Source of the DNA: Peptococcaceae bacterium
Lineage (GTDB): Bacteria; Bacillota; Peptococcia; Peptococcales; Peptococcaceae
DNA length: 64,000 nt
Reading direction: 5' to 3'
Assembly: GCA_900759105.1 (NCBI GenBank)
Contig: CAAETY010000147.1
Location: 7,431 to 71,430, forward strand
Positions within the stretch are counted from its first letter, which is position 1. Each line of letters opens with the position of its first letter. This document shows, piece after piece, positions 5,413 to 58,602 of this stretch. The notes below the pieces were generated by a model. That model made no database searches, was not told where the DNA came from, and was given only the letters and a program-made list of their open reading frames with translations. The position numbers and the translations under genes were made by a program.

Positions 5413-5583
5413 TGGACGAATTATGTCATCATTTAAAATGTGAAGTCTAGACTACTAATAAAAACCATTTATAAGTGCTATTATATGGCATACAGGGGGT
5501 GAGATTGAAACGATAAATAAAAATTATTCTCCCGTAGCAATTTTTCTTTATGTTTATCCTAAAAAGAGAGAGGATGAAAAAAG

Positions 5584-7065
5584 ATGAGTGAACAAAAACA
5601 AAAACGTAATCTTTATCCGGTTCATTTGGTAGTTGGCTTTGGCATCATGGCATTATTCTGGCTCATGCCACCAATTGAACCTATTACAGCACTCGGGATG
5701 CGCTGTGTTGGTGCGTTCCTTGGGATGGTCTATCTCTGGAGTGCTGTTGACACACTCTGGCCTAGTATGGTCGGGCTCTTCATGTTGGCAATTTCCGGTT
5801 ATGGCGGTGATGGTGGCTTTAACGGCGTGTGGATGCAAGCTGTTGGGGTATACACCGTTCTCTTGACCTTGTTTGCAATGGTACTCTTTGGTGCGATGGA
5901 TGAAGTTGGCGACACCAAGTACATTGCTAAATGGTTCTTGACCCGTTCTATCTTCAAGGGTCGTCCAATGGTGTTTATGGCAGTATTCTATGCATGCTGC
6001 TTCGTTTTGGCGGCAATCTGCTCTCCAATCACTTCTTTGATTATTCTTTGGCCTATCGCATTGAGCTTGATGGATTCTGTTAACATCACTCGCGAAGACC
6101 GTTTGTGGAAGTATTTCTTCGTAGGGATGTTTGCGGTATCTACATTGGCACAGCCATTGTTCCCATTCTTGGGTGCACAGCTCATTCCTTATGCAGCATT
6201 CCAAAGTATGACCGCAGCAATGGGCAACCCAATGACCATTCCTATGGGCCAATACATGGCTGTTGACCTTATCATGACTACTTTGGTAATGGCACTCTAC
6301 CTCGTTGTTTTAAGATACGTATTGCGTGTTGACATGTCCAAGTTAAAAGCTGTTGACCCTGCAATGGTAGAAGAACAAATGCCACTGCCTAAGATGAATT
6401 TCCAACAAAAGGCATTCCTCTACATGATTCCTTGCTATTTGATAATGATTCTTTTGCCTAACTTCTTCCCTAACAATCCTGTATCCGCCGGTCTTAACTT
6501 TATCGGGCCTATGGGGATTACCATTGTTTGGGTAATGATTTTCCTTATCGTTCGTTGGAACGGCAAACCTCTCTTGGACTTCAAGGAAGTTGCATATCGT
6601 CAATTTAACTGGGGTATCTTCTTCATGATCGCAGCAGCTGTATTTGGCGCAAATACCTTGTCCAATCCAGACACCGGTGTTCCTGCCTTCTTGATTAAAG
6701 CCTTGACCCCAATCCTCGGTGGCCGCAGTGAAATGGCATTCGTTGCCATCATGTTCACCACCGCATTGATTATCACTAACTTCGCAAACAACGCTGCAAT
6801 GGCCGTTGTACTCATGCCGGTTGTACTGAACTTCTCCAATGAAATGGGTATCAACCCAATGCCTGTTGCAACCGGGGTTATCCTCATGGTATTCGTTGCG
6901 ATGTTGACCCCTGCTGCATCCCCACACGCTGGCTTGATGCATGGGATGAAAAAGATTTACAACACCAAGGATATTCTTTCGGTTGGGTTCCCAATCTGTA
7001 TTGCGACCTTGCTATTGTACATTTTCATCGGTTACCCACTTTGCAAGGTGCTCATGGGTGTATAA
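5584..7065 (+). CDS. ion-transporter-superfamily permease, paralog B
   Basis: 493 aa tandem paralog of 3853..5331; it has its own promoter region and a leader containing the shared element GTGAGATTGAAACGATAAATAA. Confidence 0.55.
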   Translation: MSEQKQKRNLYPVHLVVGFGIMALFWLMPPIEPITALGMRCVGAFLGMVYLWSAVDTLWPSMVGLFMLAISGYGGDGGFNGVWMQAVGVYTVLLTLFAMVLFGAMDEVGDTKYIAKWFLTRSIFKGRPMVFMAVFYACCFVLAAICSPITSLIILWPIALSLMDSVNITREDRLWKYFFVGMFAVSTLAQPLFPFLGAQLIPYAAFQSMTAAMGNPMTIPMGQYMAVDLIMTTLVMALYLVVLRYVLRVDMSKLKAVDPAMVEEQMPLPKMNFQQKAFLYMIPCYLIMILLPNFFPNNPVSAGLNFIGPMGITIVWVMIFLIVRWNGKPLLDFKEVAYRQFNWGIFFMIAAAVFGANTLSNPDTGVPAFLIKALTPILGGRSEMAFVAIMFTTALIITNFANNAAMAVVLMPVVLNFSNEMGINPMPVATGVILMVFVAMLTPAASPHAGLMHGMKKIYNTKDILSVGFPICIATLLLYIFIGYPLCKVLMGV

Positions 7066-46082: not shown

Positions 46083-47069
46083 ATGTCAAATTATTCGCGT
46101 AAGCTTCCACGTGCTGAACTGAAAGCGGAAGCTAAGCAAGTGTTGCGACCGAACTGGGCAACGGTTTTGCTCGTCACACTAATCTACATGATTTTCATGG
46201 GCGTGGACAGCTATACCTATTCCCGTTATATTCCGGGAACCGAAAATGTCGCATCCTATTCTGTATCCGGTGCGGCAGGCATGTATGCGAGCTATATTGG
46301 TGAAAATATTGATATTGGTCGCATGCTGATTGGTGTACTCATTGCAATTGTTTCTGCTCTTTTGATTCAAGGGGTTATGGGCTATTGCTATACGGCGTTC
46401 TTTATTCGCATGGCAGAACACAAGGGCCAAAAAATAACCTTCGGGACCTTTGTGGAAGGATTTACCGATGCGGTTAAAGCCATTTTGGCATTTATTTGGC
46501 AATATATTTGGATTGCGATTTGGGGATTAACCGCTGTTCCGGGCGTTGTTTTATTGATGATTGGCGTTTTTGGCATTGTGGTGCCACAAGAAAACAACGG
46601 TGCATTGACTGCCATGGTGATTATTGGCATATTGCTGATCATTGCTTCAGCGGTGCTAATGACCATTGTGACCTTGCGCTACATGTTTATGTACCAAGTG
46701 ATTGCTGATGGTCGTGGCAAAGTTGGCGCACGTCAATCCATGCGTTACTCCATTGCGATTGCTAAAAACAATATTTGGGATCTCTTTGTGTTGATTCTCT
46801 CTTTCTTCCCATGGTTGCTTTTGAGTGTGTGCCTTTTCGGCTTGCCGTTCTTCTATGTCTTGCCTTATATGGAAGCGACCTATGCAGTTAGCTACCAATG
46901 GCTCCGCGATGAAGCGTTCCGTGCCGGTCGCTTGGACCCTGCGGCGCTGGGCTATGTTGCACAAGCCACTGCACCGGCGGTTGAAGTGCCACAAGCAATG
47001 CAAACACCAATGGCGACTGAAACACCGCTTGCCAATGAAGAGGCGAGCGATATGAAGGAGGACGAATAA
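46083..47069 (+). CDS. DUF975-like polytopic membrane protein
   Basis: 328 aa; about 6 TM helices; Ala/Pro-rich C-terminal tail. Confidence 0.45.
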   Translation: MSNYSRKLPRAELKAEAKQVLRPNWATVLLVTLIYMIFMGVDSYTYSRYIPGTENVASYSVSGAAGMYASYIGENIDIGRMLIGVLIAIVSALLIQGVMGYCYTAFFIRMAEHKGQKITFGTFVEGFTDAVKAILAFIWQYIWIAIWGLTAVPGVVLLMIGVFGIVVPQENNGALTAMVIIGILLIIASAVLMTIVTLRYMFMYQVIADGRGKVGARQSMRYSIAIAKNNIWDLFVLILSFFPWLLLSVCLFGLPFFYVLPYMEATYAVSYQWLRDEAFRAGRLDPAALGYVAQATAPAVEVPQAMQTPMATETPLANEEASDMKEDE

Positions 47070-48103
47070 TGAGCGAGTCCGACAATAGTCAATACATTCG
47101 CACCGACGAAATATCTGAGGATGTGCAGCAGTCGGTTTACAATCAACCGCCCCAAAAGAAAAAGAAACGCAGCAAATGGCTGGCGTTCTTTGTTGCAATC
47201 GGTATTTTGGTGGCATGCACAGCCATTGCCTGTGGATTATTTATAGGTGATAGCGCGCACGATGGCCCGTTTTCAAGTGGCGAAAAAAATGTTGTAATGA
47301 TTGACGTCAACGGTGAAATCACTGAAGAAGGCACAACCTACAATCAAAAATTTATTTTGAATCAAATCAACGAAGCCAAAAATGACAGCGATAATGAAGC
47401 TATTTTGCTGATGTTCAATACACCGGGTGGCAGCGTTTACGAGTGTGACGAAGTACACCGTAAGCTTGTTGAATACAAAAAAGAAACCAAACGTCCGATT
47501 TACGCATATTGTGAAGGCATGTGCGCATCGGCCGGGTATTATATTGCTACCACGGCGGATACCATCTATGCCAACCGCAATAGCTTGGTTGGTTCCATCG
47601 GCGTAATCTGTGGGCAGTTTGTCGATGCAAGCGGCCTGCTCGATAAGCTCGGTGTTCATGTGACAACCGTTCACAGCGGTGCCAACAAAACCATGGGCTC
47701 CATGTATGAAGCGCCAACCGATGAACAGCTAGCCATTATGCAAGCGATTTCCGACGAAGCCTATGAGCAATTTGTGGATGTGGTTGCTACAGGGCGTGAC
47801 ATGAGCGTGGAAAAGGTCAAAGCCCTCGCTGACGGCCGTGTGTATTCTGCCAAGCAAGGGAAGGCCAATGGCCTGATTGACCGGATTGGCACCATCGATG
47901 ATATGGATGCTCAAATTAAGAAGAATTTGGGCGATGACGTACGCTTTTATCACGAAGTATACGAACAAAGCCCCTATGCATCCCTCTTTAACAGCTTGAA
48001 GAGCTATCTCGACACACGCGGCATGTCCGGTGAATTGGCAAGCAGCGTCAAGACCATCGAAGGCATGCGCATCACCGAACCGATGTATCTCTATCAGCCA
48101 TAA
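47069..48103 (+). CDS. sppA: signal peptide peptidase SppA (S49, 36K type)
   Basis: N-terminal TM helix; S49 catalytic Ser context CEGMCASAGYYIA and conserved Lys. Confidence 0.8.
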   Translation: MSESDNSQYIRTDEISEDVQQSVYNQPPQKKKKRSKWLAFFVAIGILVACTAIACGLFIGDSAHDGPFSSGEKNVVMIDVNGEITEEGTTYNQKFILNQINEAKNDSDNEAILLMFNTPGGSVYECDEVHRKLVEYKKETKRPIYAYCEGMCASAGYYIATTADTIYANRNSLVGSIGVICGQFVDASGLLDKLGVHVTTVHSGANKTMGSMYEAPTDEQLAIMQAISDEAYEQFVDVVATGRDMSVEKVKALADGRVYSAKQGKANGLIDRIGTIDDMDAQIKKNLGDDVRFYHEVYEQSPYASLFNSLKSYLDTRGMSGELASSVKTIEGMRITEPMYLYQP

Positions 48104-48141
48104 GTTTTTACGAGCCACAGCCTTGCCTGTGGCTCTTTTTC

Positions 48142-48170
48142 TTGACTTTGTGTGGGCTTACGCATAAAAT
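48142..48170 (+). promoter_or_regulatory. sigma70 promoter TTGACT-N17-TAAAAT
   Basis: Consensus-like hexamers with a 17-nt spacer immediately upstream of the T-box leader. Confidence 0.6.
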
Positions 48171-48177
48171 AAAAGGA

Positions 48178-48397
48178 GCTATGAAGGGGCTTGTTGTGCC
48201 ATTCTTTACAGAGAGAGCCGGTGGTCGCTGTAAACCGGTTAAAGAAGGCATGATGTTCCACCCCGGAGCGTTGGCGTAATGGCCACGGTTGGCACCGTTA
48301 TCTGCTGCAAAGTGATGATGGCATATGCCGTCATAAACTGGGTGGTACCGCGGAACTTCTCCGTCCCTATGGATATAGGGACGGTTTTTTTATTTTT
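48178..48397 (+). promoter_or_regulatory. T-box riboswitch leader (tRNA-sensing antitermination)
   Basis: AGAGAGA (AG bulge) next to a short distal stem-loop GCCGG...CCGG; canonical T-box sequence AAACTGGGTGGTACCGCGG (48335-48353); terminator CCGTCCCTAT...ATAGGGACGG followed by T7 (48361-48397); candidate specifier UCC-A at 48257-48260. Confidence 0.8.
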
Positions 48398-48411
48398 GAG
48401 GAGGAATAGGC

Positions 48412-49926
48412 ATGAACATCCTATTAGAGGAACAGCTTTGCGACGAAGCCATGGATGCATTAAACGCTTCGGCAGCAGAGGTCGTTGTTGACCCGAGCCT
48501 TGCTGCTGTCGGCACTGCGGATGCGGTGATTTTGACCGGACGCAGTCCTGTCCCTGATGCCTTATATGATGAAAAATCCTTGTTGCGTGTCGTTGGCTGC
48601 TTAAATGCGAACAATGCAAATTTTGATTTATCTCGTGCGACCCGCGCCGGGCGCATGGTATTGGTGCCGCATTATGGTGAAGCCGCATCAGTGGCGGAAT
48701 ATGCCATGCGCGCCATGCTCGATATGGCACGTAACCGTGCAGACGGTGCCATCGAGCTCAAGGGCAAGACCATCGGCTTTTTGGGATTTCCTCCTTTGGC
48801 CGGGGAAATTGCCCAACGTGCCAATGCCTTTGGCATGAAGGGCTTGTGCTATGACCCGGAACTCAATCGTGGTCGTGCCATGCTGCACAATGTGGAACGC
48901 ACCAATTTGGTAGATCTCTTTGTGCGTAGCGATTTTGTGCTTTTGGTGCAGCCTGCAAGCGAGTGGAGCAAGGGGATGATTGGCAAGGATGAAATTCAGC
49001 TCTTGCAAAAAGGCGCCGGGTTGATTTGTCTTACCGACCCACAAATTTTCCGCTGGGATGAATTGGTCATGGCCCTTGATTGGGAGTATCTCAGTCATTT
49101 CGCCATCGACTTGCCACAAAATCGTGCGCACTTGGCACGTGAAGTAAAAAAATACGGTGCAGTGACCGTTAGCGAAGCGGCCAATACCCGTGAAGCCCGC
49201 TTGGCCAACCAAGTGGAAATGGCACAGGATGTAGTGGCTGCCCTTCGCGGCGAACAGGTTGAAACCGCTATCAACATCACACGTGTGCATCTTGCCAACC
49301 TGCGAGAAGGCGGCGAATGGTGTAACCTCGCCCATACCTTGGGGCTCTTTATGGGACAACGCATGAAAGGCCTTGGTGGCAAATGTATCATTACCGAAAG
49401 CGGCAATGTGCCTTGCACAGAAAGTGATGCCATAGTGGCTGCGCTATTGGAAGGCATGGCCAAGGGGCTCGGTGAAACCACCATTAACCGCATCAATGCC
49501 CTGCTTTGGGCCGAAGAAAACGGTCTCAATTTAACCATCGAAAAAAAACCGGATGCAGCGGAAAGCCGTCTGCACCTTTCGGTGGAAACCAAGGAAAGCC
49601 ACTTACAGGTGGCCGGTACCCGAAGCGGTGGCCAAGCGCTTATTGTGCAGGTAGATGATTATGTGGTGCATGCACAGCCACGCACCCATTTGTTGCTCGT
49701 ACCGCACATCAATCGTCCGGGCTTGGTTGGACAGATTGGGACATTGTTGGGCGAAAAAAATGTAAACATCGCAGAAATGGTGTTGGGGCACAAGCCGCAA
49801 GACCGTACCACTGCGTTAATGTGGATCCATATCGAAGAAGCGTTGGATAAATCCATCAGCGAAGAGAGCCGCAAACTCGCCAGCGTGCTCAATATGGAAT
49901 ATATTCATTTACCAAATCAAGATTGA
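48412..49926 (+). CDS. type-I D-3-phosphoglycerate dehydrogenase homolog (ASB+ACT domains) with degenerate NAD-binding and catalytic motifs
   Basis: 504 aa; 2-hydroxyacid-DH fold; Rossmann motif reads GFLGFPPLAG rather than GxGxxG; by-eye alignment puts Asp and Glu at the positions of catalytic Arg and His; C-terminal ACT (HLLLVPHINRPGLVGQIGTLLG). Confidence 0.6.
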   Translation: MNILLEEQLCDEAMDALNASAAEVVVDPSLAAVGTADAVILTGRSPVPDALYDEKSLLRVVGCLNANNANFDLSRATRAGRMVLVPHYGEAASVAEYAMRAMLDMARNRADGAIELKGKTIGFLGFPPLAGEIAQRANAFGMKGLCYDPELNRGRAMLHNVERTNLVDLFVRSDFVLLVQPASEWSKGMIGKDEIQLLQKGAGLICLTDPQIFRWDELVMALDWEYLSHFAIDLPQNRAHLAREVKKYGAVTVSEAANTREARLANQVEMAQDVVAALRGEQVETAINITRVHLANLREGGEWCNLAHTLGLFMGQRMKGLGGKCIITESGNVPCTESDAIVAALLEGMAKGLGETTINRINALLWAEENGLNLTIEKKPDAAESRLHLSVETKESHLQVAGTRSGGQALIVQVDDYVVHAQPRTHLLLVPHINRPGLVGQIGTLLGEKNVNIAEMVLGHKPQDRTTALMWIHIEEALDKSISEESRKLASVLNMEYIHLPNQD

Positions 49927-49948
49927 TTCTATTTAGGAGGGACTTTTA

Positions 49949-51214
49949 ATGTTAGATATTAAAGAAATGCGTCGTGACCCTGAACGTGTGGCAAAAGCTG
50001 TAGGCCGCCGTGGCAAAGAAATTGATATGAAGCCATTCCTTGAAGCCGATGAAAAGCGTCGTCAAATCATCGCCAAGGTTGAAGAATTACAAGCACAACG
50101 CAACGCAAAGAGCAAGGAAGTTGGCCAACTCAAGCGCAACGGTGAAAATGCCGATGCCCTCATGGCAGAAGTAAGCGCCATCAAGGCAGAAATCGAAAAA
50201 CTCGAAGCTTCCAAAGAAGAAGTGGATACCTTCGTAACCAACTTTGTGGCAAGCATTCCAAACATGCCAAAGGATGACATTCCGGACGGCGGCGAAGACG
50301 ATTATCATGTAGAACGCACCTGGGGCACCCCACGCGAATTTGCTTTTGAACCAAAGGCACACTGGGAACTCGGTGAAGCCCTCGACATTTTGGACTTTAA
50401 CCGTGCTGCCAAGGTAACCGGTAGCCGCTTTGTATTCTACAAAGGCTTGGCTGCACGCTTGGAACGTGCTGTTATCGCATTTATGATTGATATGCACACC
50501 GACAAGCACGGTTATACCGAACTCATTCCACCATACATGACCAACAGCACTTCTGACTTTGGTACTGGTCAATTGCCTAAGTTTGCAGAAGACATGTTCC
50601 ACTTGGAAAACACCGACTATTACCTCATTCCAACCGCTGAAGTGCCTGTAACCAACTATCACAGAGATGAAATCCTCACCGAAAAGGACCTTCCTGTAAA
50701 ATATTGCGCATTCAGCCCATGCTTCCGTTCCGAAGCAGGCTCTGCCGGTCGTGATACCCGCGGTATCATCCGTCAGCACCAATTCCACAAGGTTGAAATG
50801 GTAAAGCTCGCACATCCTGATCATTCCTGGGAAGAGCTTGAAAGCCTGACCCACGATGCAGAAGAAGTGCTTCAAGCATTGGGCCTTCCATATCGTGTGA
50901 TTACCTTGGCTGCCGGGGACATCGGTTTCAGCTCTGCCAAGACCTACGACATCGAAGTATGGCTCCCAAGCTACGGCAAATACCGTGAAATTTCTTCCTG
51001 CTCCAACTTTGTAGACTTCCAAGCACGCCGTGCCAACATCCGTTTCCGTGACAACGATGGCAAAGTACGCTACGTACACACCTTAAACGGCTCCGGCTTG
51101 GCTGTTGGTCGTACCGTTTCCGCTATTATGGAAAACTACCAAAACGAAGACGGCAGCATTACCATTCCGGAAGCACTCGTTCCTTACATGCACGGGTACA
51201 CTGAAATTCGCTAA
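49949..51214 (+). CDS. serS: seryl-tRNA synthetase
   Basis: 421 aa; N-terminal coiled-coil arm plus class II core motifs ([21 protein letters not shown]). Confidence 0.95.
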
Positions 51215-51236
51215 TTCGTAAGGAGTAATGGAATCA

Positions 51237-52637
51237 ATGAAAAAAGACTTGGATTTTACACGTATTCATCGATTCGTATTCGATGATTTACACATCATGC
51301 TCGACGTGAACAGTGGCTCTGTCCATGTAACCGACGAAGCGGTGGATGCCTTCCTCGATGCCCTGGAGGAAGGTCAAGCATGGGACGATGCCATTGCGAC
51401 CACCGCAAAAGCCTATGGCGAAGAAGACGCCAAGGACATTGCCGAAGGCATTGAAGCCTTGATTGACGAAGGCATGCTCTTTAGTGATGTAGATTTTGCT
51501 GATTATGTACCGCATACCCAACCAATCGTGAAGGCAATGTGCTTACACATGGCCCATGACTGCAACCTGCGCTGTGGCTATTGCTTTGCGGACACCGGCG
51601 CATATGGCGGCGGTCGTTCCTTGATGAGCCTTGAAGTCGGCAAGAAAGCCATCGACTTCCTCATGGAAGCAAGCAAGCACCGTACCCATGTGGAAATCGA
51701 CTTCTTTGGCGGCGAACCACTCTTGAACATGGATGTGTGCAAGCAGGTGGCAGCCTATGCCAAGGAAAAAGCCGCTGAAAAAGGCAAAATCGTAAAGATG
51801 ACCATGACCACCAACGGGGTGCTCTTGGACGATGAATGTGCAAAGTGGCTCAACGAAGAAGAAATGGACGCCGTACTTTCCTTGGACGGACGTCCGGAGG
51901 TACACGACAACATGCGTCGTTTTGCCGGCGGCCAACCAAGCTACGAAGTGTGCAAAAACCACTTCCAAAACTTTGTAAACAGCCGTGACCACAAGCAATA
52001 CTATCTCCGTGGCACCTATACCCACTTTAACCCTGATTTTGCACAAGATGCCATCCACATGGCAGATGATTTGGGCTTTGTAGAGCTTTCCTTGGAACCG
52101 GTTGTAGCACCGGCTGACATGCCTTATGCCTTGACCGAAGAAGACAAGCCAACCATTCTCGAAAACTACAACATTCTCGCACGCCACTATTTGGATCGCT
52201 GGCGCGAAGGCAAGGGCTACAATTTCTTCCACTTTAACGTGGACTTTACCGGTGGCCCATGCCTGCCAAAACGTTTGAGCGGCTGTGGCTCCGGCCATGA
52301 CTACTTGGCGGTTAGCCCGGAAGGGGACCTTTACCCTTGTCACCAATTTGTAGGCGAAGAAGATTACAAGATGGGGACCGTATTCACCGGCATTGAAAAA
52401 CCTGAAATTGCCGAACGCTTCCAAAAAGCCAACGTCCTCACCAAGCCAACCTGCATGAAGTGCTGGGCACGTTTCTTCTGCAGCGGTGGCTGCCACGCCA
52501 ACAACATTCGTTACGGCGGTGGCATTAACGAACCGTACGAATACGGCTGCGATTTGCAACGCAAGCGCATTGAAACGGCAATTTACGTACAAACCGTGAA
52601 AATGATCGAAAGCGCTGAAGGAGGCGAGGACCAATGA
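51237..52637 (+). CDS. radical SAM/SPASM peptide maturase, SCIFF-maturase (ScfB/CteB)-like
   Basis: About 466 aa; roughly 100-aa N-terminal RRE-like extension; CNLRCGYC radical SAM cluster; C-terminal SPASM C-x2-C-x5-C-x3-C (CMKCWARFFCSGGC); strong recalled similarity to thioether-forming SCIFF maturases; ATGA overlap with pheA. Confidence 0.6.
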   Translation: MKKDLDFTRIHRFVFDDLHIMLDVNSGSVHVTDEAVDAFLDALEEGQAWDDAIATTAKAYGEEDAKDIAEGIEALIDEGMLFSDVDFADYVPHTQPIVKAMCLHMAHDCNLRCGYCFADTGAYGGGRSLMSLEVGKKAIDFLMEASKHRTHVEIDFFGGEPLLNMDVCKQVAAYAKEKAAEKGKIVKMTMTTNGVLLDDECAKWLNEEEMDAVLSLDGRPEVHDNMRRFAGGQPSYEVCKNHFQNFVNSRDHKQYYLRGTYTHFNPDFAQDAIHMADDLGFVELSLEPVVAPADMPYALTEEDKPTILENYNILARHYLDRWREGKGYNFFHFNVDFTGGPCLPKRLSGCGSGHDYLAVSPEGDLYPCHQFVGEEDYKMGTVFTGIEKPEIAERFQKANVLTKPTCMKCWARFFCSGGCHANNIRYGGGINEPYEYGCDLQRKRIETAIYVQTVKMIESAEGGEDQ

Positions 52638-53500
52638 GTGGTCTTTTGCCATCCTTTGCAGAACCTGTAAAAAAACCGCGCATTGCATTCCAAGGCATTG
52701 AAGGCTCCTTTAGCGATGGCGCTTGCCAAAAGGTGTTTGGCTCTGACGTTGAACGTGTCGGCATGCCACACTTTCAATATGTGGTAGAAGGCGTATGCAG
52801 CGGAGAATATGATTACGGGGTGCTCCCAATCGAAAACTCTTCCACAGGGAGCATTAACGATGTGTATGATTTGCTCAACGAAAACCCATGTTACATTGTG
52901 GGTGAAACATCACTTGAAATCACCCAAAACCTCATGGCTGTGCCGGGCACCAAGCTTGAGGATGTGGCCTATGTATACTCTCATCCCCAAGGCCTCGGCC
53001 AAAGCCAACGCTTTTTGATGCAGCACAATATTGAACCGCGCCCTTATGCGGACACTGCCATGAGTGCACGCTACATCGCCGAAACCCGCCCGGCAGACGG
53101 GGCGGCCATTGCTTCCAAGCAAGCGGCGGAAGTGTACGGCTTGGAAATTTTGGTGCCGCATGTAAACTTTAACTTTTCAAATATCACCCGTTTTGTGGTT
53201 ATTCGCAAAGAACCGGAAATCACCCCAAACCAAAATAAGGTGAGTGTGGTCTTTAAGACTGCGCACCGTCCGGGGGCACTGTTGGAAGCCTTGCGATTTG
53301 TCGCGGAAGCACACATCGACATGAGCCGCATTGAATCTCGCCCGGTCATTGGTAAACCTTGGGAATACAGCTTCTATGTGGATCTCTTGGGTCACTGGGA
53401 TGATGAAAACTTTATGTACTGCTTGGAACAGATGCAAGCAGTAACGGAAGATTTCCGCGTGCTCGGCACCTACGAAGCCGCAGAAACACACTATCTCTAA
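52634..53500 (+). CDS. pheA: prephenate dehydratase (PDT plus ACT)
   Basis: 288 aa; PDT domain plus C-terminal ACT; ESRP motif. Confidence 0.85.
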   Translation: MSGLLPSFAEPVKKPRIAFQGIEGSFSDGACQKVFGSDVERVGMPHFQYVVEGVCSGEYDYGVLPIENSSTGSINDVYDLLNENPCYIVGETSLEITQNLMAVPGTKLEDVAYVYSHPQGLGQSQRFLMQHNIEPRPYADTAMSARYIAETRPADGAAIASKQAAEVYGLEILVPHVNFNFSNITRFVVIRKEPEITPNQNKVSVVFKTAHRPGALLEALRFVAEAHIDMSRIESRPVIGKPWEYSFYVDLLGHWDDENFMYCLEQMQAVTEDFRVLGTYEAAETHYL

Positions 53501-53519
53501 ATCGAAAGGAGACATCACC

Positions 53520-54455
53520 ATGAAAGATCTCTTTTCCCACGTTGTCGGCGAAAACAACGTGAAACTCAACGAACCCCTTAGCGCCCACACTACCTTCCGC
53601 ATTGGTGGCCCTTGTGATGCAATGGCTTTTCCACATAGTGTGGATGAACTCGCAGCTGTGGTGCGCATTTGCAAGCGTGAAGGCTTGGATTATTTTGTGC
53701 TTGGAAAGGGTAGCAATATCCTTGTTGCCGACAAGGGCGTGCGCGGTGTGGTCATTGCCACCGAGTGCTTGCGCGCTCTCTTTATTCAAGACAATGCCGT
53801 TTGTGCCAGCGCAGGCCTTTCCCTCATCAATGTGAGTAAGGCTTGTGCCGAGCTTGGTTTGAGCGGTCTTGAATTTGCCAGTGGTATTCCCGGGAGCATC
53901 GGCGGTGCAGCGTATATGAATGCCGGTGCTTATGACGGTGAAATGAAGGATGTTGTTACCAGTGTGACCGTGCTTGATGCAAGCGGTAACATCCGTGAAA
54001 TCCATGCTGATGACATGCAATTTAGCTATCGCCATAGCCGCCTCAAGGAGGAACCCCTTGTTTGTTTGGCGGTGACGATGCAACTCAAGGACGGCGACAA
54101 GAAGGACATCCTTGCCCATATCGCAGACCTTTCCGAACGCCGTAGCAGCCGTCAACCTTTGGAGCTTCCAAGTGCCGGGAGCACCTTCAAACGCCCAACC
54201 GGCTATTATGCAGGGCCACTCATCATTGAAGCAGGCCTGCAAGGCTACACCGTGGGCGGCGCCCAAGTCAGCACCAAGCATGCTGGCTTTGTCGTGAATG
54301 TGGGCGATGCCACCGCTGATGACGTGATTCGCCTCATCCATCACGTACAACAAACCGTCAAGGCTCACCACGGCGTGGACCTTGAAACAGAAGTACGCTT
54401 TATCGGAAAGTGGGATGACCATCCGCTCTATCATGAGATTTTGCGTGCCGAATAG
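53520..54455 (+). CDS. murB: UDP-N-acetylenolpyruvoylglucosamine reductase
   Basis: 311 aa; FAD-binding PCMH fold; N-terminal HTTFRIGGP motif. Confidence 0.9.
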   Translation: MKDLFSHVVGENNVKLNEPLSAHTTFRIGGPCDAMAFPHSVDELAAVVRICKREGLDYFVLGKGSNILVADKGVRGVVIATECLRALFIQDNAVCASAGLSLINVSKACAELGLSGLEFASGIPGSIGGAAYMNAGAYDGEMKDVVTSVTVLDASGNIREIHADDMQFSYRHSRLKEEPLVCLAVTMQLKDGDKKDILAHIADLSERRSSRQPLELPSAGSTFKRPTGYYAGPLIIEAGLQGYTVGGAQVSTKHAGFVVNVGDATADDVIRLIHHVQQTVKAHHGVDLETEVRFIGKWDDHPLYHEILRAE

Positions 54456-54467
54456 CATACAAATGTA

Positions 54468-54509
54468 AAATAACCCTGTTTCCTATCGTGGGAAACAGGG
54501 TTATTTTGT
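54468..54509 (+). terminator. rho-independent terminator (left copy of the 29-bp repeat)
   Basis: CCCTGTTTCC-tatcgt-GGGAAACAGGG hairpin followed by ATTTTGTG. Confidence 0.8.
54474..54502. repeat. 29-bp direct repeat CCCTGTTTCCTATCGTGGGAAACAGGGTT (left copy)
   Basis: Identical to 57356-57384. Confidence 0.9.
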
Positions 54510-54713
54510 GTTGTAGCATATCTTCCTACTTATTAAGCGCATCCAACTTTTCAAAATTGCATCTAATTGCAAATCATCCATGCGATTGAGTTTATTTTTG
54601 ATTTCACCCAGGCTCTGTTGTATCTCTAAACAAGATGAGCGAATTTGAATCACCATCACCAATGTTATTACAAGTAGTATTGGTACAACAACCCAAAAAA
54701 TTAATTCTAGCAT
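54501..54713 (-). CDS. small single-TM protein with coiled-coil tail (island cargo)
   Basis: 70 aa; TM helix FWVVVPILLVITLVMVI; AT-rich gene; immediately downstream of the secreted-protein gene. Confidence 0.45.
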   Translation of the reverse strand: MLELIFWVVVPILLVITLVMVIQIRSSCLEIQQSLGEIKNKLNRMDDLQLDAILKSWMRLISRKICYNTK

Positions 54714-54731
54714 TTTAATTATCCCCTTTGT

Positions 54732-55652
54732 TTAAGCGAGGTATTGAGCATGTCCTTCTTCACTACCCTTTCCGGAAAATGAAATAGATCCTACATTAAA
54801 AGAAACCTCCACTGTACCGGGTGTCCAACTATGAAAGTAATATGCATTAATTAAAATCGTTCCGGAGGTCACAGGGCTGGCATTCGCCACAAAAGCTTTA
54901 CCAGCCTGACAATACTGTGGACTCCAAGATGTGGCATGTAACATTTCAATATCAAATTTCACATTACCATTACTTGTATATACAGGGTAGATGCGTTTAT
55001 TGGTATCCTCTAAATATCCATTCTCATCTTTATATATTAATTTGGCAGTGCTAGAACCTTGAACTACATAGCCATTAGAAATACATGCAGCAATTGGATC
55101 TGTATATTTTACACTTGGTGCACTATCCCAATGCCAGTAAATATTGTAATTACATTGTCCTGATGTACGAGAAACACTTGCTATATTAAATGCCAATTTC
55201 GAAGAGGCCGCTCTTACATCGGCATCTGATAGGTTTTCATAATTTCCTGATTTAATATTAGCGATAGCTTCTTTGGAAAGTCCTTTACTCACTAGTGCTG
55301 TCTTAGAAAGTTTCGCAGCATTATCTAAGACAATCTTTTTAGTACTTTCCGTTCTCAGCTTTTTTATATCATTTTCTTCCATTTTAAGATTTATTAATTC
55401 TTTGTCAGACATTTTTTTCATTTCTTCAATAGAATCAATTTCATAGCGTATTGACGCACCAGGTAGACTTGCAATCTCTTCATAAGTCAGGGTATCGTCG
55501 TTTGCTAAAAAGCCCTCATAAGTGCTATCCATTTCCAAAACTTGTGTCATATGAGAATTTTGTGCTGTAGCTGCACTTAGTGGTAATGCTAAACTCATCA
55601 TTAATAATACACTACATCCAAGCGCTACTGTTCTTCTTAATGTTTTTTTCAT
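54732..55652 (-). CDS. secreted hypothetical protein (island cargo)
   Basis: 306 aa; signal peptide with an AxA-type cleavage site; low-GC codon usage unlike the surrounding genes. Confidence 0.5.
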   Translation of the reverse strand: MKKTLRRTVALGCSVLLMMSLALPLSAATAQNSHMTQVLEMDSTYEGFLANDDTLTYEEIASLPGASIRYEIDSIEEMKKMSDKELINLKMEENDIKKLRTESTKKIVLDNAAKLSKTALVSKGLSKEAIANIKSGNYENLSDADVRAASSKLAFNIASVSRTSGQCNYNIYWHWDSAPSVKYTDPIAACISNGYVVQGSSTAKLIYKDENGYLEDTNKRIYPVYTSNGNVKFDIEMLHATSWSPQYCQAGKAFVANASPVTSGTILINAYYFHSWTPGTVEVSFNVGSISFSGKGSEEGHAQYLA

Positions 55653-55948
55653 CGTGATAACCTCCTTGCAAAATAAAAAATAAATATTCTGAATTATTCG
55701 TGGCCACCACCTCTTTATTTTTAATCAACTTCATTTGCACATAATCAGCTATTAGACATTGATTTCGGATACCTAGATATTACCGAACGCTGTGCAAAAA
55801 ATACTTAATCGAGTATGTTTATTCTATTTTAACAAAATTCGGTAAATTTGTAAACGAATAACAAACGGTTCTACTATTTTTCGAGATTGTTATCGATGCT
55901 AATCTGAAAAATGTCAATAGTTCCTGTTGAAGATAGATAAAATTAAAG

Positions 55949-57349
55949 GCTCTTCACGGATTTCGGTTGGAAAATAAAATAATTACAAAAACACGAGCAT
56001 GCCTCATACTGTAAGTATCCACACAAACCAGTAAAGGGAGGACATGCTCGTGTTTGATTTAGAGTTTAATGAACTAGACATGCTTTGTCAAGATAACCAC
56101 AGAGATGATACTTCTATAATTGTACAACCCGAAAAACATTCTATACCTTCTTCCTGTCCGCATTGTGGTTCTAAAATGTATCGTCATGGACTATATACGA
56201 GAAAATTGAAAGATATGCCCGTTTATCCAGATACTTCCTATACACTGATTATTAAAGCACAACGTTACCGTTGTCCACATTGTGGTTGTTCTATACGGCA
56301 GGAAATTTCTCATCGTTATCCAGGTACTAATATCACCAAACGTGCAGCTGCTTGGATTAAAGCTTCTTTGAACGCTAAATTTCCGGTGTCTCAGATTGAA
56401 GATATTACAGGAATTCATTGGGATACTATTCGTAAAATTCAAGAGGAACTCATTTCTCAAGCATTGAATGAGTATGAAAATTTACAGGTTAAAAACGGAT
56501 ATAAACCAAAGTATCTTGCAATAGATGAATTTGCGATTCGTAAAATGCACAAGTACGCTACTTGTGTCATGGATTTAGAAAAGGGGCATGTTATTTGGGC
56601 AGGATTAGGTAGAGCAAAGGCAGATTTTGAATATTTCTTCAAGGATATCCCTACATCTTATCTCGAACAAGTCGAGGTAGTTGCTATGGATATGAACGCT
56701 TCCTACAATCTTCTTGTTGAACAATATTTGCCACAAGCAACGATTGTCTATGATTGTTATCATATGCAAGCACAATTTGGAAAAGTGGTGCTTGGAGAAA
56801 CTCGTTTGGAAGCTGTCAAAGCACATCGCAAACAGGCTGAGCAACTCACTACACAAGCTGCGTGTGAAACGCAGGATGAAACAAGAAAAGTGTTGAAAGC
56901 ACAAGCCAAAGAAGAAAAACGAATATCAAGTCTACTCAAGAACAGTAAACAGCTCAAGGATAGTGAACAACAAAAATTAGCAACCATAGTGGAAAGCCAC
57001 GAAGAAGTGGCTATTTGCTATGCGATGAAAGAAGAAATGATGCGATTATATGAATTGAGAGATGAACAACAAGCGAGAACTGAATGGTTAAATTGGTTTG
57101 TGGCAGCAAAAGCAAGTGGTATTCCTGCCCTAGTAAAGTTTGCACAGTTAAAAGAAAAACGCTTACTGGGATTAGTCGCACATGCGACTATCCCGATAAG
57201 CACAGGTAAATTAGAAGGATTCAACAACGTTATACAGACTGCCAAGAGAACTGCTTATGGTTATCTGAATAATGAATTCTTCCTTAGGCTGATAAGATAT
57301 CTATCGCTACCGAAGGGATGAATTCCAATCGAAATCCGCGATGAACCAA
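55949..57349 (+). mobile_element. ISL3-family insertion sequence
   Basis: Terminal imperfect 25-bp inverted repeats GGCTCTTCACGGATTTCGGTTGGAA (55949-55973) and GGTTCATCGCGGATTTCGATTGGAA (reverse complement of 57325-57349) bracket the transposase ORF. Confidence 0.8.
56044..57321 (+). CDS. ISL3 family transposase
   Basis: 425 aa; N-terminal zinc-finger (CPHCGS...CPHCGC) and a DDE domain of ISL3 type. Confidence 0.9.
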   Translation: MLVFDLEFNELDMLCQDNHRDDTSIIVQPEKHSIPSSCPHCGSKMYRHGLYTRKLKDMPVYPDTSYTLIIKAQRYRCPHCGCSIRQEISHRYPGTNITKRAAAWIKASLNAKFPVSQIEDITGIHWDTIRKIQEELISQALNEYENLQVKNGYKPKYLAIDEFAIRKMHKYATCVMDLEKGHVIWAGLGRAKADFEYFFKDIPTSYLEQVEVVAMDMNASYNLLVEQYLPQATIVYDCYHMQAQFGKVVLGETRLEAVKAHRKQAEQLTTQAACETQDETRKVLKAQAKEEKRISSLLKNSKQLKDSEQQKLATIVESHEEVAICYAMKEEMMRLYELRDEQQARTEWLNWFVAAKASGIPALVKFAQLKEKRLLGLVAHATIPISTGKLEGFNNVIQTAKRTAYGYLNNEFFLRLIRYLSLPKG

Positions 57350-57355
57350 AAAAGG

Positions 57356-57384
57356 ACCCTGTTTCCTATCGTGGGAAACAGGGT
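57356..57384. repeat. 29-bp direct repeat (right copy); also the terminator hairpin for the minus-strand Fe-S oxidoreductase gene
   Basis: Identical to 54474-54502. Confidence 0.9.
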
Positions 57385-57393
57385 TCTTTTACG

Positions 57394-58602
57394 TTACAGC
57401 ACTTGGCTGATATGCAAAACCTTCAAATCCTTGTGGCGTTGCTCGAGCTTGCCGAGCTGCATCAAGCAGCTTGGACATTCTGCTACGACAATGTCAGCGC
57501 CGGTGGCTTTGAAATCTTGGTATTTCTTTTCGAGGATTTTTGCGGAGGTATCCGGGAAATCAAGCTGGAAGGTGCCGGCGCCGCCACAGCACATAGTGGT
57601 GTTGGCAGCAGGCAGATACGTCACAGCTTGCTCCAACAGGGCTTGCGGCTCTTTGTGAATGCCTTGGCCACGGTTAAGGTGGCAGGAGGCGTGATAGGTT
57701 ACGCGCAATTCCTTGTGGGGGGTTGGTGTATAGCCCACCGCATAGAGGTATTCGCTCAGACCCATGACTTTCTTGCTAAAGGCACGGGCGCGGTTTTTCA
57801 TAGCCGGGTCATCGCTAAACAAATCGCCGTATTCCTTGAGCATGGCGCCACAGCTGCCGCAATCGGTAACAATCAAATCATAGTCCTCGAGCGCGGCGAT
57901 GTTCCTTTTGGCGAGGGCCTTGGCTTCATCGGTCATCCCATGGGAATGCTGCGGAAGCCCACAGCAATCCACCGTAGGAACCTCGGTGGTGCGGCCTGTT
58001 TTTTCCAATAGCGCTACGCTTGCTGAAGCAGCATCCGGGAAGAAGAGCTTCATGGCGCAGCCCTTGAAATAGGCAATGCGCTTGACATTGCTGACATCCA
58101 CATCGCTTCGTGGTGCCACCTTGTTGAAGTTAGCCGGGCCGCCGCTAATCGGTGCCTTGTGGTTTGTTGGCAAAAGGCCGCGCGTCAGGCGTGGAAATTG
58201 CAGGGTTTGCGCCAAGGCAATGGCCGGACGTCCGATTGTTTTGAGGGGACGATTGGCCATCCCGCTGCCGACAAGGCGTGTTTTCAGCGGTAGCCCGTAA
58301 TCATCGCGCAACCATTGGCGCACTTCAATCATGGCTTGGTCGGTCATGACCTTGCCCGGGCAAACCTCGGTGCAAGCTTTGCAAAGCAAGCAATAATCAA
58401 GGGCTTCACGCAATGCTTTTTCACCGCCGTCGAGCTTCCCTTCCAAAAAGGCGCGGGCAATCGCAATTTTGCCGCGGGCAGCGGCACGATCAATGTGATT
58501 GACCTTGTAGAGGGGGCAGACCGTGGTGCAGGCGCCGCAACGGTCGCATTTTTCGACGATGGCTTTGAGTTTTTCGGTGTGTTCGTGGTTCATGGCACTC
58601 AC
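57394..58602 (-). CDS. (Fe-S)-binding oxidoreductase subunit, GlcF/LutA-like (two 4Fe-4S motifs plus two CCG domains)
   Basis: C-x2-C-x2-C-x3-CP motifs (CDRCGACTTVCP; CLLCKACTEVCP) and two CCG-type Cys clusters. Confidence 0.75.
   Translation of the reverse strand: MSAMNHEHTEKLKAIVEKCDRCGACTTVCPLYKVNHIDRAAARGKIAIARAFLEGKLDGGEKALREALDYCLLCKACTEVCPGKVMTDQAMIEVRQWLRDDYGLPLKTRLVGSGMANRPLKTIGRPAIALAQTLQFPRLTRGLLPTNHKAPISGGPANFNKVAPRSDVDVSNVKRIAYFKGCAMKLFFPDAASASVALLEKTGRTTEVPTVDCCGLPQHSHGMTDEAKALAKRNIAALEDYDLIVTDCGSCGAMLKEYGDLFSDDPAMKNRARAFSKKVMGLSEYLYAVGYTPTPHKELRVTYHASCHLNRGQGIHKEPQALLEQAVTYLPAANTTMCCGGAGTFQLDFPDTSAKILEKKYQDFKATGADIVVAECPSCLMQLGKLEQRHKDLKVLHISQVL

Follow-up and report, generated by a model that had tools for sequence, protein, structure and literature searches.

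Serine-specific T-box leaders precede serS, serA and serC genes in Firmicutes, and T-box control of serA in Paenibacillus polymyxa and of serC in Desulfitobacterium hafniense and C. thermocellum has already been reported (PMC8002221). A leader of the same type opens the unit described here, which occupies positions 48142-54509 of a 64 kb stretch of DNA from an uncultured gut Peptococcaceae bacterium (hereafter the window). The resemblance extends to the full leader architecture, the serine specifier (UCC, a codon already reported in clostridial leaders), the terminator/antiterminator switch and the presence of serS among the regulated genes. Unlike the Firmicutes serine T-box operons, however, the window operon has no serC, and the serA position is occupied by a catalytically dead paralogue of phosphoglycerate dehydrogenase (PGDH), referred to here as pseudo-SerA. 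In a further difference, scfB, pheA and murB, three genes unrelated to serine, are appended downstream. Taken as a whole, the unit is probably a serine T-box operon in which the dead SerA is produced together with seryl-tRNA synthetase (SerRS) as a non-catalytic, serine-binding regulator. The riboswitch and the parent gene arrangement are known; what is new is the conserved family of dead SerA proteins and the occurrence of an unlinked ScfB in a tRNA-synthetase operon.

Regulatory pseudoenzyme paralogues include the ACT-type small subunit of acetohydroxyacid synthase and the trypanosomatid S-adenosylmethionine decarboxylase prozyme. Pseudo-SerA resembles these, by analogy only, as a dead paralogue under selection in which ligand-binding and oligomerisation domains are kept, and the analogy extends to the ACT-less catalytic paralogue (a short SerA) found in its relatives, as in regulatory-pseudoenzyme pairs. 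The window ScfB is comparable to the ScfB/CteB maturases of SCIFF ranthipeptides in score, identity, cysteines and peptide-recognition region. It differs from them in having no neighbouring SCIFF gene and in being set between serS and pheA under a T-box. The unit was compared with loci carrying pseudo-SerA (L081-L090, L094 and L095), with loci from outside the family (L002, L007 and L013) and with SCIFF-linked controls (L091-L093). L081-L083 are conspecific contigs on which pseudo-SerA is 100% identical.

Pseudo-SerA and the origin of its family

Type-I PGDHs such as M. tuberculosis SerA1 (1YGY/3DDN/3DC2) consist of substrate-binding, nucleotide-binding, ASB and ACT domains. The first gene of the unit (48412-49926, + strand) encodes a 504-residue homologue of this type and is preceded by the Shine-Dalgarno (SD) sequence GAGGAGG at 48398-48404, 7 nt before the ATG. 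It had been described in a first-pass annotation as a degenerate PGDH homologue, and this description is borne out when the protein is set beside M. tuberculosis PGDH (1YGY/3DDN) and a series of other true PGDHs. Unlike in the type-I enzymes, the NAD-binding motif GLGRIG (GxGxxG) is replaced by GFPPLA, the catalytic arginine motif NCARGG by CLTDPQ, the glutamate motif DVFxxEP by IDLPQNR and the histidine motif TPHLGAST by TVSEAANT. The Arg/Glu/His residues are exchanged for Asp/Asn-Arg/Ser, and their loss is family-wide. The protein also lacks ~14 residues ahead of the nucleotide-binding domain and has not kept the substrate-phosphate motif GRAGVGVDNID. The protein misses the equivalog cut-off of TIGR01327, scoring 243.5 against 454 bits.

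Modelling indicates that the four-domain type-I fold, including ASB and ACT, is retained. The AlphaFold2 (AF2) model, built on 17 family members, has a pLDDT of 90, and its top Foldseek matches are 3ddn, 1ygy and 3dc2, the four-domain M. tuberculosis PGDH (E = 1e-38 to 1e-39). In profile searches PF19304 scores 45 bits and ACT 21.5 bits, the latter under its cut-off. The ACT loop PH-x-N-[RK]-PG and the downstream VNI with its Asn, conserved as in type-I PGDH, are kept across the pseudo-SerA family, and are presumably equivalent to the L-serine site formed by H344, N346 and N364 in E. coli SerA. The H344A/N346A variant is the standard feedback-resistant mutant of the E. coli enzyme (PMC9612172).

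A profile search of 1.84 billion representative proteins defines the family as ~15 representative clusters at 50% identity, scoring 320-851 bits, with true PGDHs starting at ~310 bits. A full-length open reading frame (ORF) is present in every lineage, at 31 to 100% identity, and conservation within the family extends to the replacement motifs (LTDP-IFRWDELV-ALDW-YL, FAIDLP, EAANT-EAR). The basal members P0025, P0201 and P0203-P0205 keep GLGNVG and the YDP aspartate, with the catalytic Arg and Glu already lost. When genome contigs were searched with the same profile, nearly all of the matches listed were true PGDHs, the highest identity being 31%, and neither the window's own species nor any complete genome was among them. 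A literature search on PGDH pseudoenzymes gave no match. On its sequence, pseudo-SerA is a conserved, catalytically dead PGDH paralogue representing a previously undescribed family.

Between the window and the conspecific contigs the pseudo-SerA gene differs by 24 synonymous and 2 non-synonymous changes, a ratio of non-synonymous to synonymous polymorphism (pN/pS) of 0.024. The corresponding values for its neighbours are 0 for serS, 0.047 for both scfB and pheA, and 0.118 for murB. A pN/pS this low reflects strong purifying selection and argues that the gene is not decaying. Automatic pipelines will nonetheless label it 'phosphoglycerate dehydrogenase', which is the wrong name. Annotation problems extend to the start of the gene in P0002, P0017 and P0022, where the ORFs run through the T-box leader and the N-terminal '...HKLGGTAEF...' is translated T-box sequence; these starts are mis-annotated in public data.

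Pseudo-SerA is found directly upstream of serS in all ten related arrangements examined, and a serine T-box was found in all except L090. The conspecific contigs L081-L083 (100% identity) carry the T-box, pseudo-SerA, serS, scfB, pheA and murB, and the same five genes occur in L085, L084 and L086, where pseudo-SerA is 60%, 56% and 53% identical, respectively. In L088 and L089 (32%) the T-box, pseudo-SerA and serS are followed by two tRNA-Ser genes and one tRNA-Arg gene, while the more distant L094 and L095 have the T-box, pseudo-SerA and serS only. The invariant core is the serine T-box, pseudo-SerA and serS, with gaps of -14 to +34 nt. The tail of scfB, a variable gene and murB is a later acquisition in one subclade. 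Placement of a radical S-adenosylmethionine (SAM) maturase and murB in a synthetase T-box operon had been singled out as unusual; the arrangement is not the oddity of one genome, as the same order recurs in L081-L086. In L087 (37%) the pheA slot between scfB and murB is filled by a 124-residue GcvH-like gene (glycine cleavage H protein) at 5414-5788.

The likely parent of this arrangement is seen in three loci recovered by the contig search, L002 (5263-9988), L007 (5347-9808) and L013 (60-4201), which belong to Clostridia outside the family. These ancestral-type loci encode serC, an intact long serA with all catalytic motifs, and serS, followed by tRNA genes. A T-box with UCC-G lies upstream of serC in L002 and L007; the L013 contig ends ~60 nt before serC and its leader is not visible. 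The gene order of the window matches the T-box-serC-serA-serS order of L002 and L007, and by this comparison the window operon is a derived form of T-box(UCC)-serC-serA-serS that is conserved in a clade rather than confined to a single genome.

Intact SerA proteins of 300 residues, without ACT or ASB, are encoded beside SerC in L084 (3600-5601, - strand) and L090 (180-2177, - strand), a few genes upstream in both. The simplest history suggested by these sequences is that T-box-serC-serA-serS came first, that a short SerA and SerC took over catalysis, and that the long SerA persisted without a catalytic function. In a tblastn search, the short SerA and SerC of the relatives had no match at E <= 1e-3 in the 64 kb window, pseudo-SerA included. 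The short SerA-SerC pair of L084 and L090 stands just upstream of DUF975-sppA; the equivalent region of the window (42.9-46 kb) encodes VanY, DUF436 and a MerR regulator.

The T-box leader and the genes it precedes

The leader spans 48172-48371 (+ strand) and matches the T-box family RF00230 along the full model (1-219) at 104.2 bits (E = 6.4e-22), above the gathering score of 93 bits. RF00230 is the sole Rfam family matched in the whole window. The leader comprises stem I (with GA/kink-turn motif, specifier loop, AG bulge and distal loop), stem II/IIA-B, stem III, the T-box sequence and the antiterminator, and AGAGA is invariant in an alignment of related leaders (A3). Scores of the related leaders are 114 bits for L001, 108 for L088, 97.7 for L087, 90.4 for L084, 89.7 for L086 and 86.5 for L085, with further values of 90.4 (L094), 110.7 (L095), 121.5 (L002) and 116.1 (L007).

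The T-box sequence and antiterminator occupy 48335-48367 (+ strand), with GGG at 48340-42, the 7-nt bulge UGGUACC at 48343-49, an inner helix and CCC at 48365-67. The antiterminator is seen both in a fold of 48336-48372 and in the covariance-model alignment, and the core GGGTGG.A.CGCGG is unchanged across A3. The terminator hairpin and its U-tract lie at 48361-48397 (+ strand), the stem (48361-48384) having 10 bp, six of them G-C, and running into T7; its folding energy is -20.5 kcal/mol (z = -2.45). CCGUCCC forms both the 5' arm of the terminator and the 3' arm of the antiterminator, making the two structures mutually exclusive, and the leader folded without the terminator 3' arm adopts the classical antiterminator. 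The full T-box leader with terminator named in the first-pass annotation was thus recovered, and from its sequence it is an ordinary, textbook serine switch for which antitermination by uncharged tRNA is predicted.

The consensus promoter noted before the leader was also located. A sigma-70-type element, TTGACT-17 nt-TAAAAT, at 48142-48170 (+ strand) agrees with the consensus at 10 of 12 positions and is the best match in the region. As a class, promoter-like matches are not above chance there (7 found against 7.8 expected in shuffled sequence), so that position is the main support for this promoter. In A3, five of the seven related leaders share the aligned TTGAC of its -35 element.

The serine codon proposed at first pass, UCC-A at 48257-48260, is placed in frame by the RF00230 alignment, in which the antiterminator is intact. 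UCC occupies 48257-48259 (+ strand) and is followed by the purine A at 48260; the 3' side of the specifier loop reads GAUG-U-UCC-A and leads into the closing CCCC helix. Eleven leaders were compared, those of the window, L001, L084-L088, L094, L095, L002 and L007 (L089 repeats the L088 match), and UCC followed by A or G stands in the same register in every one. Within A3, T122, C123 and C124 are invariant, and UCC-A/G is likewise found in L094, L095, L002 and L007. No tRNA genes were found in the window from which to read the effector tRNA. The two tRNA-Ser genes after serS in L088 end ...CUCUCC-G, giving G73, and the T-box bulge across leaders is UGGU or, in most, UGGC. As G73 pairs with the U or the C of the bulge, both forms fit tRNA-Ser. 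By the covariance model and the eleven leaders, the sequence specificity is settled as serine, read from UCC plus a purine.

A glycine specifier (GGC in GAAGGCA) was considered and rejected. The segment is present as had been noted, at 48244-48250 rather than 48245-48251, but it forms the 3' strand of stem I, varies among relatives and lies in the wrong register of the model, and the discriminator-base match speaks against it as well.

Five co-directional genes follow the leader, encoding the PGDH homologue, SerRS, ScfB, PheA and MurB. The serS gene (49949-51214, + strand, SD AGGAGG 8 nt upstream) scores 547 bits on TIGR00414, above the cut-off of 302, with both PF02403 and PF00587 matched (N-terminal coiled-coil and class II core), and its product is identical in sequence to MEE0229282.1 (annotated 'Peptococcaceae bacterium'). 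The product of pheA (52634-53500, + strand) is a prephenate dehydratase that includes an ACT domain, with 191.8 bits on PF00800 and 24.1 bits on PF01842; on the NCBIfam equivalog NF008865 it reaches 214 bits, just below the cut-off of 219. The last gene, murB (53520-54455, + strand, SD AAAGGAG), encodes a UDP-N-acetylmuramate dehydrogenase with FAD_binding_4 and MurB_C domains that scores 370.7 bits on NF010480 (cut-off 259).

The tight coupling of these genes was confirmed by reading the junctions directly. The TGA of the PGDH homologue is followed by 22 nt holding AGGAGG and then the serS ATG. After the serS TAA come AAGGAG and an ATG at 51228 or 51237, a gap of 13 or 22 nt that contains the SD site only. 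The scfB and pheA genes share an ATGA start/stop overlap, as previously noted, with GAAGGAGG within scfB, and the pheA TAA is separated from the murB ATG by 19 nt including AAAGGAG. Terminator-like matches inside the unit are at chance level (11 found against 8.6 expected) and all are short. After murB, a 17-bp hairpin, AAAATAACCCTGTTTCC...GGAAACAGGGTTATTTT, at 54467-54507 would close the operon as a bidirectional terminator, the next gene being on the opposite strand. Because the gaps are of 19-22 nt or replaced by an overlap, each gene has an SD sequence and no terminator intervenes, read-through to murB is probable, and scfB, pheA and murB are probably co-transcribed with pseudo-SerA and serS.

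The scfB gene (51237-52637, + strand, alternative start 51228) encodes a SCIFF-type radical SAM/SPASM thioether maturase. The start at 51237 is more likely given the SD spacing and the N-termini of relatives. The protein scores 597.2 bits on TIGR03974 (cut-off 425) and fails the 'not_ScfB' exception model NF040492 (491.8 against 855), which marks it as a true ScfB by hidden Markov model score. Its CX3CX2C motif (CNLRCGYC) and C-terminal SPASM cysteines align with those of SCIFF-linked homologues (TIGR04085, 68 bits), and the N-terminal peptide-recognition region and all cluster cysteines are kept. ScfBs of the operon type share 63-86% identity with one another and 51-61% with the SCIFF-linked homologues of L091-L093, which are only 51-56% identical among themselves; the window protein is 52-59% identical to SCIFF-linked ScfBs. 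By sequence, it is an ordinary, functional ScfB.

The first-pass annotation had called this maturase an orphan. The SCIFF-type assignment stands, and the orphan status holds in the sense that no precursor is linked to it within the window or the flanks of its relatives. The usual scfA-scfB pair is present in each of L091-L093, whereas no SCIFF gene (PF13165 / TIGR03973) was found in the 64 kb window or in L081-L090, the best hits being at chance level (E = 0.03 or weaker), and no SCIFF-like ORF lies within 8 kb in seven related loci. The search combined a six-frame regular expression and a cysteine-density scan with tblastn using three real SCIFF peptides; as a positive control, each of the SCIFF peptides of L091-L093 retrieves the others at E values of 1e-22 to 1e-31. 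At the protein level a SCIFF query matched 5633 clusters, and of the ten with NCBI sources that were looked up, none was traceable to the metagenome-assembled genome of the window. The precursor is probably encoded elsewhere in the genome, though it may have been lost or ScfB may have acquired a new substrate. An ScfB under tRNA-Ser charging control, or one without a linked precursor, offers a lead on the still-unclear physiology of SCIFF.

Proposed regulation and competing explanations

It is proposed that transcription starts at the 48142-48170 promoter and that the tRNA-Ser anticodon, presumably GGA, base-pairs with UCC. The free NCCA end of uncharged tRNA-Ser would pair with the UGGU bulge and stabilise the antiterminator, allowing RNA polymerase to read on, while charged tRNA-Ser would leave the 48361-48384 hairpin to terminate transcription. 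Read-through would cover pseudo-SerA and serS, and probably scfB, pheA and murB, ending at the 54467-54507 hairpin. In this lineage the long SerA would have lost NAD binding and catalysis, with a separate short SerA and SerC doing the chemistry. Pseudo-SerA would be made with SerRS when tRNA-Ser charging falls, acting as a non-catalytic, serine-binding regulatory protein. Three features suggest a regulatory role: the ACT/ASB and dimerisation domains are still present, selection is strong, and the pairing with serS is obligatory. Most likely the role would be exerted by partnering either SerRS or the short SerA that lacks ACT. Pseudo-SerA may then illustrate, in nature, how an enzyme becomes a probable regulator without leaving its original operon, and may serve as a case for trans-acting ACT/ASB regulation of a minimal SerA.

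A more specific version of this role can be offered tentatively. It may be that the dead SerA is a dedicated sensor of free L-serine, acting through its ACT domain by forming a hetero-oligomer with the short SerA or by binding SerRS, and that in the window's subclade the same signal also gates the SCIFF maturase, with the corresponding peptide lost or encoded elsewhere. If true, a circuit whose only other input is tRNA-Ser charging would also respond to free serine. Ranthipeptide maturation, phenylalanine synthesis and cell-wall synthesis would also be tied to serine status in that subclade.

Several observations weigh against the proposed regulatory operon. The distal loop of stem I in the window (48224-48231) reads GGUCGCUG, against GGUUGGUG in all related leaders and the Rfam consensus; the two changes are not sequencing errors, as they are also present in the conspecific contigs L081-L083. 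There is no short serA or serC in the 64 kb window, and their presence in the genome is assumed from the relatives. The linkage of pseudo-SerA and serS may have been inherited from the ancestral operon, which makes it a weak sign of functional partnership. Conservation of pseudo-SerA peaks at residues 121-260, once the Rossmann/active-site region, and is not confined to the ACT domain. Lastly, weak promoter-like matches at 50459 (50459-50487, inside serS) and at 52841 (inside pheA), although at chance frequency, make an internal promoter for scfB-pheA-murB conceivable.

Such a promoter would be required if the T-box governed only pseudo-SerA and serS, with scfB, pheA and murB merely lying downstream. 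This arrangement would suit murB as an essential housekeeping gene and the family-wide core, which in L088, L094 and L095 is limited to the T-box, pseudo-SerA and serS. It is nonetheless doubtful, as serS and scfB are separated by just 22 nt (13 nt with the longer start) that contain only an SD site, no terminator follows serS, L084-L087 keep the same tight junctions and promoter-like matches are no commoner than in shuffled sequence.

The concentration of conservation in the nucleotide-binding/active-site region could also reflect the gain of a different ligand or of a different catalytic activity. In that case the PGDH homologue, whether enzyme or sensor, would bind a new ligand in its remodelled nucleotide-binding cleft, for example as a sensor of NAD(H) or a metabolite like the CtBP-type members of its superfamily, and would not be a serine-binding ACT regulator. 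The basal members P0025, P0201 and P0203-P0205, which still have GLGNVG and the YDP aspartate, lend this some weight. However, GxGxxG is lost in most members, including the window protein, no known catalytic motif replaces those lost, and the ACT-site residues are conserved as well, which renders a new ligand unlikely.

Less plausible still is the view that the PGDH homologue is a functionless remnant of serA in the course of decay. It does hold the place of serA in the ancestral operon and has lost all catalytic and substrate-binding motifs, yet the ORF is full-length in all lineages down to 31% identity, the replacement motifs LTDP, FAIDLP and EAANT-EAR are conserved, pN/pS is as low as in serS, scfB and pheA, and the AF2 model is confident.

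A Phe codon, UUC, had left the codon assignment ambiguous at first pass, and two-codon T-boxes are known, as in Clostridium acetobutylicum. That the leader reads UUC, or UUC and UCC as a dual Ser/Phe specifier, would explain pheA in the operon and agrees with the overlap of UUC (48256-48258) with UCC and the U 5' of UCC in 9/11 leaders, but is highly improbable: UUC is not conserved, with CUCC in L084 and GUCC in L085 where pheA is kept, UUCC occurs in L088, L094, L095, L002 and L007 where pheA is not in the operon, so that UUC has no tie to pheA, the covariance model sets UCC-A in the codon-plus-purine register where UUC would be followed by C, and the C of the UGGC found in most leaders cannot pair with A73, the tRNA-Phe discriminator.

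Boundaries of the unit and flanking observations

Upstream of the unit lies sppA (47069-48103; Peptidase_S49 / TIGR00706). Its intrinsic terminator at 48112-48135 (+ strand), with a 9-bp stem containing six G-C pairs followed by TTTTTCTT, forms the 5' boundary of the unit. In L088, cas1 and cas2 (1657-2875) lie ~1.4 kb upstream of the T-box, with an N run (masked sequence) just before the leader.

Downstream, 52-nt copies of the murB hairpin at 54467-54518 and 57350-57401, 87% identical, bound a segment of ~2.9 kb. The segment contains a 70-residue membrane ORF (54501-54713, - strand), a 306-residue ORF with no Pfam or NCBIfam match (54732-55652, - strand) and an ISL3 transposase (56044-57321, + strand). 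As the conspecific contigs L081-L083 have only ~600 nt at this site, 54467-57401 is a strain-specific insertion beside the hairpin.

A further observation concerns the tRNA genes of the ancestral-type loci. RF04351 ('Plastid-psbl-rps4 3'UTR') matches the antisense of tRNA-Ser-sized bacterial tRNA genes at 41-67 bits, against its gathering score of 68, at L002 10412-10467, L007 11376-11428 and L013 4466-4522 (all - strand). The model seems to have been built around a tRNA in reverse complement, and false positives are likely to arise from it.

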